A DNA stretch of 64,000 nt, counting the filler, from Basidioascus undulatus (lineage: Eukaryota), in NCBI GenBank assembly GCA_000826855.1. It is 12 parts of 12 records of this genome, joined end to end, with 100 filler letters (N's around TTAATTAATTAA, not from the genome) between each part and the next. Parts side by side here need not be neighbours in the genome. Positions count along the whole stretch, not along the records: positions 27,040 to 32,325 come from JTLS01001967.1; 11 more parts are not named here. One strand, 5' to 3'. The notes beneath the pieces were generated by a model. It worked only from the letters and a program-made list of their open reading frames with translations, was not told the DNA's origin and ran no database searches. Below are positions 1,201 through 57,975 of this stretch, piece by piece. The position numbers and the translations under genes were made by a program. How positions within the stretch are numbered: the stretch's first letter is position 1; each line of letters starts with the position of its first letter.

Positions 1201-1203
1201 AAG

Positions 1204-1276
1204 TGGTTCTTCCGTGGATTGAACACGGTACCTTCAGGACTTCAATCTGACGCTCTCCCAGATGAGCTAAAGAACC
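1204..1276 (-). tRNA. tRNA-Phe(GAA), intronless, copy 1
   Basis: Reverse complement GGTTCTT TA GCTC ATCTGGGA GAGC G TCAGA TTGAAGT CCTGA AGGTA CCGTG TTCAATC CACGG AAGAACC A. Acceptor, D and T stems are perfect; the anticodon stem has an A31-C39 mismatch. Identical to 53754-53826. Confidence 0.92.
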
Positions 1277-27039: not shown

Positions 27040-27097
27040 GTTCGATCCCTGCGTCGGTCAAGGCCGGCTGGCTCAATGGTAGAGTATCTGACTACGA
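27040..27097 (+). tRNA. Circularly permuted tRNA-Arg(ACG), copy truncated by the contig start
   Basis: GTTCGATC CCTGC GTCGGTC A (T arm, acceptor 3' strand, discriminator), 1-nt linker A, GGCCGGC TG GCTC AATGGTA GAGT A TCTGA CT ACG A (5' half), then CTG TTTTT. Confidence 0.85.
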
Positions 27098-27100
27098 CTG

Positions 27101-27105
27101 TTTTT
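27101..27105 (+). terminator. RNA polymerase III oligo-dT terminator
   Basis: T5 run 3 nt after the end of the tRNA 5' half. Confidence 0.65.
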
Positions 27106-28414
27106 GCTCCCCATCTGAAGGGCAGCTGAAAAGGAAGCAACTATTTTGTAAGAAACCTTCGGAAGCGAGGAAAGGTATTTCCTAAATGAAACCGTCTTCT
27201 AAATGCTGCATAGAACCTGAGCAGGTAATGAGCACTCGGCGGAAGGCATCTTGCAACGCTGAAGCCTTTCAAGCTGCGAGAGCATGTGGCGTCCAACGGG
27301 CAGTCTCAGACTGACGCACAGACACCATGGATACATATAAAAGAGCTCTGAATAGACCAAATCGTTCTTATCATTGCAAGGAGACAATGCACCCCAGTAC
27401 AATTGATGCATGAGCCTTGTGAGCGAAGGCAGGTGTATCTTGAAGATGGCCATGATCGCCGGGACTCAAAGCAGTTGCACACCAGGGCTGTTGGAGCACC
27501 CTCGACACGCCACAAGCCTCACAAACACCTGCCTCCCCCAATATAACTTGTTTACCCACTATTAGTATCACTTCCTTTACCTTTCACCCCGCATGACACA
27601 GTCGCGTAACCCACTGGGTTTGGTGCGGACCGACTTTCGCTTTCGCCCGGAGCGCCACATAGCCTCCCCGTTGTATAGCTTTTTGCTAGGTAGTTAAAGG
27701 ATAGTGGCCGGGGTGATGAGGGATATTAGTTACGGTTGTCACCATCGGGTGTGCGAGTGTGTTGGAAGATGTTGGTTGAGAGATAGACTGCGGCATCCAT
27801 GAGAGAGCTGGACATCCCTCCCCCAACAAGTCTCCCTTCCTCCCCCCACAAGTCTCGCTTCCTGAAGCGATTGCTCGTCGCTGGCAGAGGGCCGTGAGCG
27901 CGCCTACTACTCTTGACCCAGTACGAGCTCGTACTAGGACTTAGAGCGCGGCGGGCGTCGCTCTCGTCAGCGAGGTTGGATGCCAGCCTTGTGCGAGCGT
28001 GGGTAGCTGTCGATACGATGTCAAAGACAAACAAAGTCAGTGGTCGCAAGTGAACGGGTGCGGATGCGAGTGCGAAATGCGAGTGCGAATGTGATTGCGA
28101 GTACGCAACGACGGGCCTTTCTCCATCTCGCTCTCACCCTTCCCTTCCAAGCTGCTCTGCTCCTCTCTACCTCCCTCTCCCTCACTGCCCTCTTCAGCTC
28201 GCCCCCTTATGAAACACCACAATGCAGACCTTCCTCCTCACTCGCTCGCCTCACACTCTCGCGAACCCCAACCCGCACTCGCCCATCTCGCGACCCAAAG
28301 AAGCGATCTCATCAAGCGCGTGTACCATTCAGCCCATCCCCCATTCCCCTCCTCCCCCCATCTTCCCACTCCCTCTATTCCCGCCCCCCTCTCTTCCTTC
28401 TCCTCACATAGCCC

Positions 28415-37950: not shown

Positions 37951-38066
37951 GGCGAGATGGCCGAGTGGTCTAAGGCGTCGGATTCAATCTTCTTATAGAT
38001 TTCCTCTCATATGAAGGAACAGTCCCGATCACGCAAGTGGCGCGGGTTCAAATCCCGCTCTCGTCA
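37951..38066 (+). tRNA. tRNA-Leu(CAA) with a 34-nt intron
   Basis: GGCGAGA TG GCC GAGTGGTCTAA GGC G TCGGA TT CAA [intron] GT CCCGA, long variable arm TCACGCAAGTGG, GCGGG TTCAAAT CCCGC, TCTCGTC A; T5 terminator 2 nt downstream. Confidence 0.92.
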
Positions 38067-48709: not shown

Positions 48710-50096
48710 CTCCTCGAAGGGTGCAAGCTCGATTGAAGTTTGCCTGTCAGGCAAAGGGAGCTCGGTAGGATAACGAGGAAGGTCGAGCGTGGGAGAATTT
48801 CGCGAGCAGATGTGCGGGGTGTTCTGTGGGCTGCCCGCGGACACGGCCGAGGCACAGACTTGGTTTGAACTAGTTGAAATTTTTAAAAAGCTTTATTATC
48901 TAAAAAATGCTCTGGTCGGACAATTGAGTACTTCGGGAGCTTTGTCAGGGAAGAAATTAAAACAGTCCTCGATGTTTCGAGCTGCATGGTCGTCTGCTTT
49001 GCCTGCCCACAGCACATAGCAAGTCTCCGGAACATTATTAAATAGTTTGAGTAACTTTCTCTAAGACTTCTTAAGAATATATGCATCCCTGTCAGCCAAG
49101 CTCAGCGCGTCGCGCAGCGCGACTCATCGCAACTTGCAGTGGCTGCCCTCCGCGTCGCCCAGTGCCGGCTGGAAACCAGTGTATGCCATACCCTTCATAT
49201 TTCAAAAACTCAATACCCTCAAGATTCCTCCAGACCTTCTAACCCCTTAAAGTTCCATTATACACAAGGCGCACCGCCCTTGTCCTGTCTGTCTTCTCCC
49301 TCTACGCCAGTACTGCCTTCGCCGCCGCGCTGCTTCGCGCTGGAGGTGTACAGGACGGAAATTGAATGCTTGCGCCTAGGGATACTCACGAGAGTAAACA
49401 CCACAAAGAAACAGTAAGTTTAATCTTGCTCAGCAGGCAGACTGGTGGCACGCATTAGCAACCACTGTGAAGCTCATGCAGCGCAACGGGATCACGGCAC
49501 GTCAGTTCCGGTGAAAAGGGAAGAAAATTCTAGCAACAACGCCCTTCCGTTACTCGGGATCCAGTATTCATCCCTGTTGGATGAGATGCACGCTCATAAG
49601 CCATTCTTTCAAGTCCTGAAACCAATGCAACATCTCGTCTCTCCAAGCGTCCCCTCAGAATTCTTCCTCTTATCATTCTTAGGTGATTATCACTTTTGAG
49701 ACGATCTAGACAAAGTAAGTCAGTCCTATGGAGCAACATATGTTCGATCTCCGTGAGAAAGTACTTGTTGAAATCGAAGCTTTCTTTTAGGCTCACTGTC
49801 ATGGTCAACTGCTCTAAGGTGCGCGCTTCTCGTTCAAGGATTACATCGCTGTCACACCACCGCAGTCTGGTGGGCAAATAGAATAGCGAAAGCTTGGCTG
49901 TTACAGATTGAGGCACAGCATGGAGGAGGCACGCACTCCTGATCGAAGATCCAGCGTTTCCGATTGTTGCGAAGGTGACGGAGTCGCACCGCGTTTCGTG
50001 ACCACGAGCTGCTTCTCTTTTCAGTCTCCCTCGCTTCGTTCCTTCCTTCCTCTACCTCTCGTTATCTCTCAAGCGCCTCATGCTATCCTCCAACCA

Positions 50097-53753: not shown

Positions 53754-53826
53754 TGGTTCTTCCGTGGATTGAACACGGTACCTTCAGGACTTCAATCTGA
53801 CGCTCTCCCAGATGAGCTAAAGAACC
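53754..53826 (-). tRNA. tRNA-Phe(GAA), intronless, copy 2
   Basis: 73/73 identical to 1204-1276 with different flanks; followed by TTTCTTTT on the minus strand. Confidence 0.92.
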
Positions 53827-55291: not shown

Positions 55292-56690
55292 GCTTGAGGG
55301 ACTGCGTGGCGCTCGTGAGATAATGGTGGGGAGTGGGCGTGGGTGACGGTGAGTATTAGGAATGAGGGCGAGTGCAGGTGCGAGATGTTGACAACGACAA
55401 CGGGCACAGCATCTGCATCCGCAAATTCCGTTGAGTAACAGATCCGTTGGATTTGCAGCCGGGAAGGCCTGCCAGCTCACCGACCGAGATCATGAGTTGG
55501 AGGAATACTGTTAGTGGGAACGGTTGTTTGAGATTCTCTGAAAAGAAGGTTAGCCGCTCCCTCGAGCGCCAAAATGCTTCTAGCAACGAACGAGAAGTGA
55601 AAGACGACGTCGTGCGTGGAAGGCAGCACCTCAAAGGAAGCGGTGGCACCCGGAGGTGCACCAACCAACGAACAGAAAGTAATCGAGTGCTAAGGGGCCC
55701 CCATGAACAAATAAAACGGTGTATACGACGGCACCCGGAGAACAGGCAGTGCGCAAAGGCACCCGGAAGTAAGTATCGAAGGCGGTGCACTGCATTGGAG
55801 GCGCTTGAAAGAAGTAGAGCGACAGTGCGCTGCAGGTCGGAGATCTACACGAGAGGGGGGCGAGAGAGAGGTTAGAGTGAGATCGGTGGGGAGAGAGGCA
55901 ATGAGGTGGTGGGGAAAGAAGAAGAGTGGGAGAGCGACGCGAGAGGGCGGCGAGGCGAGTGCAGAAGCGGATGAGAGAGGAACGGCACGCGCTATCTCAT
56001 GTCTTGGTGCCAGTCTGCGCTCGAAGCTGTCCGAAGAAGAATAAATACTCGAAATAGTCTTTTGACGGGGAATTGGACGCTACTGGCGGGGGAAAGCGGT
56101 CGGAGGAGCTGTGGATCTGAATCATTCGGTCTGTCTATAGTAATGTAACGGCTGACAACGTGAAGATACAGGATCATGGGCACTGACCCAAGTCCTACCT
56201 TCCACGAGATTTTGAATTACACCTCCCTGATACTTCAGCAGAGCGGTGATTTGTGGGTCACAGTCAAAGACTCGAAGTACAACTTTGTCCAATGACGCTA
56301 CCGCGTACCGTGGCTCCGAGTGTGGGTTGCTCAGCAGACCCCTATACTCAAGAGCTGGGAATTTATCAGGATTCCCTAATGATCTGGTAACTGCAAAGTG
56401 TAGAATGGGTGATAGGTATTCTAAAGCTGTTTCAAGGTAGAGGCGAAAGAACGGCGATATATGTAGTGAGTGCAGCGTAGGTCCATGTATCAATCGAAAA
56501 CAATGAGAGGGTGGTATTAAGAGACTGCTCCTTTAGTAATAAACGGGAATTATTGAAACCTCAAGTCCGCTTAGGCAAAGAGCCATCGCGATGAAAAGAA
56601 CATTCTGCCTTGTTTCTGCTTGCTATGTTACAAAATCATTATCATTCGGCCTAGTTCATCACCAGCAAGCATAAGAGAGCGGTAGTTGAG

Positions 56691-56763
56691 ATCAGGGGGT
56701 TGCAGGTTCGATCCCTGCGTCGGTCACGGCCGGCTGGCTCAATGGTAGAGTATCTGACTACGA
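56691..56763 (+). tRNA. Circularly permuted tRNA-Arg(ACG): 3' half 56691-56726, 1-nt linker 56727, 5' half 56728-56763
   Basis: A TCAGG GGGTT GCAGG TTCGATC CCTGC GTCGGTC A - C - GGCCGGC TG GCTC AATGGTA GAGT A TCTGA CT ACG A. The re-ordered halves give a full 72-nt cloverleaf with all four stems paired (some G-U pairs). Confidence 0.92.
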
Positions 56764-56765
56764 CA

Positions 56766-56770
56766 TTTTT
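56766..56770 (+). terminator. RNA polymerase III oligo-dT terminator
   Basis: T5 run 2 nt after the end of the tRNA 5' half. Confidence 0.65.
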
Positions 56771-57975
56771 GCGTCTTCACTTGCAGTGACTGAGAAACAC
56801 TGACTGTTTTGCCCGCGAAGGGCAAGACGGCGCTCCGCGTCTCCAGGTTGTCTCCAGGTGCATGCCAGCTGCAGTTGCTGTAAGTCGAGGACGTCCGCAG
56901 GGATGACCTGGACGCTGGTTTGCATAGCAGAGATCGAAAACAGCCTATATAAAAAGCCAGCATTTGATCTGAGGTTTCAAGTATCTCCTGGTGAATTGGA
57001 GTCTAGAAGGAAAGAAGCAACAGAGCTGGAAAGCTGCAAACTGATCTGTGTGCCTGCAAGCCACACTTTCAACTGCACAAGCAAATGAATGCCAGGTAAT
57101 GCTCGGGTCCAGGTACTCCTTGTCAGCCAAAATCTTTCTCGCCCATGGTGGTGATCTTGGTGTCAGACCTGAAGGCAAGTAGGACGACAACCAACACCCC
57201 TGAAGGCTTCGGCTGCTGCTTGGACAACATCAGTCCTATGCAAACATCCGGGGCCCAACCTAGCTGAGCCCTTTCCATCTTACCACAATCTCACCAGGTC
57301 GAACTGTTTACTCTCAGTATGATGAGACCGTCGCCGAGCGATGTTCAGCTCGTTCCTTGGTGAATCAGCAACAAGTCACGCTCAATCGTAAAGTCAAGAT
57401 GTTCTTGTGATAGTGTTTTTGGTGGGTATGCCACAGCATCAAACTGTTGCATTGTTTACAATATGCTGCGATGCAGAAATTTCCCAAAGCAGAGGTAAGT
57501 GGCGTTGAAAGTTGGCGTCGAGTAGTCTCACAATATCAGACGGACTGCTGCCCACGCGGCCTTCGAAGTGAGAGCCGAAAGAGATACGAAGGCTGTCGGA
57601 GCTAGGAGCAAACTCCATATATAGTCGGGCCCACCGCGCCGCCCTCAGATTATTGTCTTAGAGTTTTGCACTATCGCCGATGACTTGATTCCTCGGCTGG
57701 CTCACTTTGCGGGCAGAACGTCTGACATATGAGACTAGACGTTGAGGCTGAATGTGAGACAACCCATGTGAGAGCCCGGGTAGCGTCCGTGGACGCGCGG
57801 AGGACGGTCGGGCGAGCGAGCCCAAAGCACTTGTCTGCCTGCCCCTCGGCCCTCGCGTTGGCATCAACGTCCTTCTCGCAGCCTACACCGCCCACACTGA
57901 CACATACACGACTCTCATTATCTTTCATTTAGCTCAACCCCAGATACAATCCGCCCTAGCGCCGTTGCGCGGGCC

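Follow-up and report, generated by a model that had tools for sequence, protein, structure and literature searches.

Does the unit at 27040-27107 of the window, in which the 3′ half of a tRNA-Arg(ACG) lies in front of its 5′ half, belong to a family of working circularly permuted tRNA genes, or is it a rearranged tRNA fragment that was copied around the genome? The window, meaning the whole 64,000-nt stretch of Basidioascus undulatus DNA that was analysed, is made up of 12 contigs sorted by decreasing length (5332, 5307, ... 5261 bases), of which the final one is cut short by the end of the stretch, with N44-TTAATTAATTAA-N44 spacers between them. Since the contigs are separated by these spacers, position 27040 is a true contig start. 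The unit that begins there (copy 2, on contig 6) is one of two in the window, and the other (copy 1) lies on a different contig. The contig of copy 2 had been described as carrying LYS1 and DPS1, and a saccharopine dehydrogenase exon with an AlaDh_PNT_N domain (Pfam) and an exon of a class II aminoacyl-tRNA synthetase (D, K, N; Pfam) were both found there; the contig of copy 1 carries a CAP-Gly domain (Pfam). The best protein match of the saccharopine dehydrogenase exon is 74% identical and named Wallemia mellicola, the next ones are many Agaricomycetes at ~70% together with Cryptococcus and Kwoniella, and all the named matches inspected among the 120 listed are basidiomycete. These protein matches identify the host as a basidiomycete and not an alga, and as one without a close relative in the protein collection searched.

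In copy 2, the contig start leaves a remnant of the 3′ half at 27040-27060 (+), covering tRNA positions 53-73 (T loop, 3′ strand of the T stem, 3′ acceptor strand and discriminator A) and including a B-box-like GTTCGATCCC at 27040-27049 (+). A single base, A at 27061 (+), links discriminator A73 to G1 of a complete 5′ half (positions 1-37) at 27062-27097 (+). This half holds the 5′ acceptor strand, the D arm with an A-box-like TGGCTCAATGG at 27069-27079 (+), the 5′ strand of the anticodon stem and the loop from C32 to A37, with the anticodon ACG at 27094-27096 (+). The trailer CTG, a T5 at 27101-27105 and GC follow (27098-27107, +), the T-run being a Pol III-type terminator three bases past A37. 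Copy 1 is complete. Its leader, GGTAGTTGAG at 56681-56690 (+), lies directly 5′ of A38 and is common to other copies with unrelated sequence farther upstream. The 3′ half (positions 38-73) occupies 56691-56726 (+) with a B-box-like element at 56705-56715 (+), the one-base linker is C at 56727 (+), and the 5′ half (positions 1-37) occupies 56728-56763 (+) with an A-box-like element at 56735-56745 (+) and the anticodon ACG at 56760-56762 (+). The trailer CA, a T5 (56766-56770) and GC close the unit at 56764-56772 (+). In both copies the 3′ half precedes the 5′ half on one strand and a 1-nt linker connects the acceptor ends, which is the gene order that defines a circularly permuted tRNA gene (Soma et al. 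2007, via PMC3978253), and in both units a T-run is found within 0-3 bases after A37 and none between the halves.

Two identical tRNA-Phe(GAA) genes are found on different contigs of the window, at 1203-1276 (-) and 53754-53826 (-), the second of which lies 2 bases from the end of its contig. The assembler therefore breaks at ordinary multicopy tRNA genes too, which fits contig 6 starting inside a permuted unit and agrees with the initial annotation, where the start inside the T arm was put down to an assembler break at a multicopy sequence.

We aligned copy 2 with 56676-56790 and found all mature tRNA positions visible in copy 2 to be identical to copy 1 (57/57), with 21/21 in the 3′ half against 56706-56726 and 36/36 in the 5′ half against 56728-56763. 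The linker is C in copy 1 and A in copy 2. The trailers read C-A-TTTTT-GC in copy 1 and C-TG-TTTTT-GC in copy 2, a difference of one substitution and one indel, after which similarity stops. Using blastn (word size 7), the two loci share just 68 bases and nothing else lies above chance in any of the 12 contigs. The reversed order of halves on a second contig, the complete match of the visible mature nucleotides, the differing linkers and the unrelated downstream flanks, all of which had been claimed from the sequence at the outset, thus hold up. The trailers had also been called diverged; they do differ, but they follow a common scheme (C, one or two bases, T5, GC) and are not unrelated sequences. 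Shared flanks had been named as the mark of a recent segmental duplication, and by the same blastn comparison the flanks share nothing beyond the 68-base unit.

The junction pattern has 2 exact matches in the window, where 0.01 are expected, and 0 of 100 shuffles reach 3 matches; a third match at 49152 has 3 mismatches and looks like chance. Likewise, the 35-nt 5′ half has 2 exact matches in the window against 0.00 expected. No tRNA-Arg(ACG) in ordinary order was found in the 64-kb window. We also considered a tandem array of ordinary genes with 1-nt spacers, and dropped it given that copy 1 is flanked by unique sequence on both sides and that its 5.2-kb contig holds no second half.

The halves of copy 1, when rejoined in silico, are called by ARAGORN as a 72-nt tRNA-Arg(ACG) with all four stems paired. 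This call holds for a join at 36/37 or at 37/38, and a join at the canonical 37/38 gives the anticodon loop C-T-A-C-G-A-A. In native order, no tRNA is called at either permuted locus by ARAGORN or by Rfam at the gathering score; in the whole window, these searches return the two tRNA-Phe genes and one intron-containing class II tRNA. The codon CGC makes up 10 of the 22 arginine codons in three Pfam-supported exon pieces and, being so frequent, calls for a tRNA-Arg(ACG). Standard tRNA finders miss the permuted units, and the genome would consequently be annotated as being without an essential tRNA.

The class II tRNA gene, at 37951-38066 (+), has a 34-36-nt intron and an Rfam tRNA score of 46.4 bits. 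ARAGORN in intron mode reads its anticodon as UCA and labels it 'SeC', while its D arm, long variable arm and discriminator A resemble those of a tRNA-Leu(CAA). Read as a Leu tRNA, it has no purine after the anticodon on the 5′ exon side, and its 31-39 pair is A-C. The region upstream is A/T-rich with a TATAAT, and a T5 begins 2 bases past the gene end.

Independent sequence data were available from three public sequencing runs. In runs X1 and X2, which come from two studies and hold ~35 million letters of contigs each, 95% of the sampled words of the copy 1 contig are present; in run X3 the value is 37%. The contigs of all three runs were compared with 56400-57000, and 56 contigs per run fall on the tRNA part. 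The same junction of 3′ half, linker and 5′ half occurs in contigs of both independent runs X1 and X2, the junction-spanning short contigs being 53-56 nt long (56697-56752 or 56697-56749), and a 10,272-nt contig runs from the unique upstream flank of copy 1 into the 3′ half with 0 mismatches. That unique flank has a depth of 52.5 in X1 and 17.8 in X2. The junction contig of X1, with one other letter, has a depth of 472.7, or ~9.0 times the single-copy flank. X2 has a junction contig with one other letter at a depth of 175.4 (~9.9 times the single-copy flank) and one without it at 298.3 (~16.8 times). Per-contig word depth is a rough proxy for copy number, and read in this way the values amount to about 17 loci of the copy 1 form and about 9-10 of the one-letter variant. 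We take this variant to be the linker-A form of copy 2, although the depth table counts the letter without giving its place. Bin depths added together (up to 13,954 in X1) do not measure copy number, and the count makes no use of them.

The flanks of these copies differ widely. Unrelated upstream sequence joins the unit at 56678, 56680 or 56681 in at least five contigs of X1 and at least four of X2, and the upstream flanks fall into at least three unrelated classes. Since they join at 56678-56681, 10-13 leader bases are common to copies with otherwise different flanks. There are several downstream flanks as well, which join at 56763, 56769, 56770 or 56775 and are T-rich; among the contigs listed, copies diverging right after A37 read TTCTTG... 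or TTTTTG..., and in every further copy visible there the T-run likewise begins 0-3 bases past A37. Positions 56778-56945 have zero cover in all three runs, and in X2 and X3 the cover is zero up to 57000. Some members are decayed, as seen in long contigs with 5 and 7 differences, one of which starts only at 56696, without positions 38-42. Taken together, the data support a family of roughly 25 near-identical dispersed units plus a few decayed ones. No intact ordinary tRNA stands directly upstream of a unit among the contigs listed, and no contig with an ordinary 5′ half followed by a 3′ half is reported among the 56 per run, where contigs show presence and not absence.

From two copies, the initial annotation had proposed a dispersed multigene family, whose junction should recur in independent sequence data and whose size should be readable from depth. 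Contigs from two runs of different studies contain the junction, its depth is ~9-10 and ~17 times that of the single-copy flank, and with at least three unrelated upstream flank classes the proposal is well founded. It had also argued against a one-off artefact, as does the presence of the junction in two window contigs and two public runs. Selection on the processed tRNA, its further suggestion, may apply: identical mature positions, a shared 10-nt leader and a T-run after each visible 5′ half fit with selection, but gene conversion or a recent burst could also keep the copies alike, and selection is not proven.

A 93-nt contig of X3 has a different structure, joining 56719-56743 directly to 56681-56748, so that directly behind the end of a unit and bases 1-15 of a 5′ half come the leader and another 3′ half. 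Such a contig could stem from a locus that is tandem or decayed, or from what is left of an ancestral duplication. The leader begins with GGTAG, which the D loop also has, and one could speculate from the X3 contig that the 5′ half in an ancestral tandem pair gave rise to the leader.

Where the units are split bears on how they could be processed. Eukaryotic tRNA introns are described, in the accessible text of one source, as lying invariably at 37/38, where a four-subunit endonuclease that measures the tRNA body cuts (PMC10485636). This makes 37/38 the one place where processing of a permuted precursor might be expected in a fungus, and the fungal units are split at 37/38. The leader is complementary to the anticodon loop in several registers. 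With the cloverleaf enforced, the computed energy is -21.3 kcal/mol with no leader pairing and -23.5 kcal/mol with GUAG on C32-C35, and the optimum of -26.7 kcal/mol pairs 56685-56690 with C32-C(+1), leaving A34 and A38 bulged. The classical register, in which position 32 pairs with the third-last leader base, is less stable than the unpaired form (-19.9 vs -21.3 kcal/mol), and no canonical 3-4-3 bulge-helix-bulge can be drawn at the termini. In the unconstrained minimum-energy fold (-28.8) the anticodon stem is broken, and the z-score of this fold, -0.20, speaks neither for nor against the model. At the other end of the molecule, only two bases close the 7-bp acceptor stem, which must fray until its loop has four bases, and we know of no system in which processing of so tight a linker has been shown.

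The weak point of reading the units as working genes is transcription. The box order is reversed in copy 1, with B (56705-56715) before A (56735-56745), an arrangement at odds with the usual TFIIIC-directed start; if the A box set the start, transcription would begin within the 3′ half. Upstream of copy 1 there is an A/T-rich patch at ~56630-56646 and CATAAGAG at ~56670-56677. No clear TATA-like element was seen upstream of copy 1, the one full upstream region, or in the 30-nt loose ends of the other copies. A/T-rich DNA lies at -12 to -30 of the window's ordinary tRNA genes, which is not clearly so in copy 1 or the loose ends.

The units combine the permuted gene order with an intact cloverleaf, dispersal in many copies, a shared leader and T-runs. 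With a probability of about 0.6, we read them as working circularly permuted genes for tRNA-Arg(ACG) that form a dispersed family in this basidiomycete, split at 37/38 and with the acceptor ends joined by a single base. RNA polymerase III would start at least some 10-13 bases upstream of A38 and stop at the T-run just past A37. The transcript is predicted to fold as a cloverleaf with a closed acceptor end and an open anticodon loop, with the leader pairing with the anticodon loop like an intron, in a register that the computed folds leave ambiguous. The tRNA splicing endonuclease, measuring from the tRNA body, would then remove leader and trailer at 37/38, and by analogy with algae tRNA ligase would join A37 to A38 into a 73-nt circle. 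By the same analogy, RNase P and a 3′ trimming activity would open the circle at the linker, CCA would be added and A34 converted to inosine. Where the linker is C, the nucleotide that RNase P leaves behind could become C74.

How does this family compare to permuted tRNA genes already described? The accessible text of a 2014 review (PMC3978253) lists such genes only for some unicellular algae, a nucleomorph and some archaea, and that of a 2026 review of photosynthetic organisms (PMC13578239) names algae only as their hosts; the origin and transcription of permuted tRNA genes are unsolved. As far as the 2014 review could be consulted, type II (37/38) permuted genes occur in green picoalgae (Ostreococcus, Micromonas), the Bigelowiella nucleomorph and Cyanidioschyzon merolae (Soma et al. 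2007; Maruyama et al. 2010; both via PMC3978253), 37/38 being the commonest junction of algal permuted genes. On that account, the fungal units resemble the algal type II genes in having the 3′ half upstream of the 5′ half on one strand with the junction at 37/38, no promoter or terminator between the halves, a T-stretch past the 5′ half, no encoded CCA, and a leader that can pair with the anticodon loop. They differ in their fungal (opisthokont) host, in a linker of 1 nt as opposed to 5-74 nt in algae, in having roughly 25 dispersed copies as opposed to single genes, and in the lack of a canonical BHB. Arg(ACG) is absent from Table 1 of permuted tRNA genes in the review (PMC3978253). The C. 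merolae promoter is described as TATA-like, whereas no clear TATA-like element was seen in the upstream sequence available for the fungal units, and circular intermediates are reported for algae, whereas the fungal units are known here from DNA alone. A 1-nt intervening sequence, the shortest on record by the same review, is shared with the permuted tRNA-Tyr(GTA) of Thermofilum pendens (Chan, Cozen and Lowe 2011, via PMC3978253), which in contrast to the fungal units is archaeal, has its junction at 59/60, encodes CCA, carries an extra intron and is single copy. In the searchable literature, as far as titles, abstract openings and passages show, we found no fungal permuted tRNA gene, basidiomycetes included; permuted tRNA genes are known in algae and archaea, and this family is the first that we could find in a fungus.

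A metagenome scan, using a degenerate pattern that the fungal gene itself fits, returned 104 matches in 103 loci, comprising 82 ordinary tandem tRNA pairs, 14 permuted tRNA-Arg(ACG) units and 8 others. The 14 permuted units have the junction at 37/38, linkers of 6-13 nt, G37 and T-runs downstream, and most of their leaders have GTAG three bases before A38. None of the 104 matches has a 1-nt linker or the sequence of the fungal gene, and none of the 14 permuted units resembles that gene. The 14 units lie in loci L015, L018, L026, L029, L038, L039 (two tandem units), L041, L051, L058, L059, L071, L088 and L093, and most of the contigs have marine-looking names.

Likenesses reach beyond permuted genes. 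As in ordinary intron-containing eukaryotic tRNA genes, going by the accessible text of the intron source (PMC10485636), the break is at 37/38 and the sequence beside the 3′ cut can pair with the anticodon loop; with this intron-like break and pairing, the same enzymes (four-subunit endonuclease, tRNA ligase) would suffice for cutting and joining. In contrast to those genes, the fungal 'intron' is open, consisting of leader and trailer, and the mature ends are joined, so ligation would make a circle. YrlA RNA (RF02553) has a T arm, an acceptor-like hairpin and a D arm in that order inside a closing stem, as the fungal units do, but YrlA is bacterial or phage-borne and without an anticodon, whereas the fungal anticodon loop is complete once rejoined. 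The units are also multicopy and dispersed and end in a Pol III-type terminator, like tRNA-derived SINEs and tRNA pseudogene families. In SINEs the A box precedes the B box, as is ordinary, and the tRNA-like part is extended by a tRNA-unrelated body and a tail. The fungal shared unit, by comparison, is ~95 nt of tRNA, leader and T-run only, and does not qualify as a SINE.

The chief rival explanation is that the family is a non-functional tRNA-derived repeat, in which a piece of tRNA-Arg, once rearranged, multiplied through retroposition of a Pol III transcript or some other duplication process and is uniform through youth or through gene conversion with ordinary Arg(ACG) genes elsewhere. The units are many and scattered, and what they share, from the 10-13 bases before the 3′ half to the T-run, is the span expected of a copied Pol III transcript. 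Decayed members (5 and 7 differences; one starting at 56696) and a box order unsuited to normal transcription point the same way, and the X3 contig that joins 5′-half bases 1-15 to the leader hints at messy rearrangements. On the other hand, a dead repeat does not readily account for identical 53-56-nt cores at ~17 and ~9-10 loci, for 57/57 identical tRNA positions in window copies whose linker and trailer vary, or for a break that falls exactly at 37/38 and keeps the whole anticodon loop. Nor is there a tRNA-unrelated body, A-rich tail or shared flank as in SINEs, only the 68 shared bases. We consider a dead repeat unlikely.

The product could instead be a small non-coding RNA that does not decode, either a Y-RNA-like tRNA mimic with a T arm, a capped acceptor hairpin and a D arm in a stem, or a 5′ tRNA half from a gene that is transcribed under the upstream B box and terminates at the T-run. 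In native order, 56672-56781 (+) does match Rfam YrlA (RF02553) with 30.9 bits (E = 4.1e-05), and an A-box-directed start would give the leader and a 5′ half ending in oligo-U. The score is far under the YrlA gathering score of 69, however, and one of four marine permuted tRNA-Arg loci also matches YrlA below threshold (L029 1468-1582 (+); 25.4 bits), so the match reflects the permuted tRNA shape in general. A mimic or half-gene would also have no use for an anticodon, for a full anticodon stem or for an anticodon loop with both of its halves, all of which are kept, and the leader upstream of the 3′ half is conserved; we therefore regard a non-decoding RNA as quite improbable. As an aside, the YrlA model could serve as a cheap screen for permuted tRNAs. 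That two tRNA fragments were simply misjoined at a repeat during assembly is hardly credible. The assembler does break at tRNA genes, with contig 6 starting inside the repeat and another contig ending 2 bases from tRNA-Phe, but two contigs of the window have the junction, each with its own linker, two runs from separate studies have it again in contigs that were built independently and whose depth is many times that of single-copy sequence, and the 10,272-nt contig joins the unique upstream flank of copy 1 to the 3′ half with 0 mismatches.

For the permuted tRNA-Arg(ACG) units as working genes, what counts is the clean rejoined cloverleaf, the 57/57 identity, the multicopy junction, the shared leader, the T-runs and the split at 37/38, together with the need for a tRNA that reads CGC and the same build in the 14 marine permuted tRNA-Arg(ACG) units. 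What counts against it is the reversed boxes, the lack of a clear TATA or of a 3-4-3 BHB, the unfavourable classical register, the anticodon stem broken in the free fold, the tight linker and the decayed copies, as well as possible ordinary Arg(ACG) genes elsewhere in the 35-Mb genome and the lack of a fungal relative in the metagenome scan.

A bolder extension is that every tRNA-Arg(ACG) gene of the fungus is permuted and that this essential, highly used tRNA is made only via a circular RNA intermediate, from roughly 25 dispersed Pol III units with the B box in front of the A box and a single base between the acceptor ends; we find this quite possible, though we lean slightly away from it. 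If all Arg(ACG) genes were permuted, permuted tRNA genes would leave the algae and archaea and enter the opisthokonts, and the inverted layout would prove to be manageable for a body-measuring endonuclease, a yeast-type tRNA ligase, RNase P and TFIIIC-dependent transcription alike. The family would represent an independent origin in a lineage with well-studied and genetically tractable tRNA biology. It would provide one gene in ~25 natural replicates that vary in linker and trailer, and it would test the use of inverted boxes by Pol III and TFIIIC and the opening of a one-base linker by RNase P.
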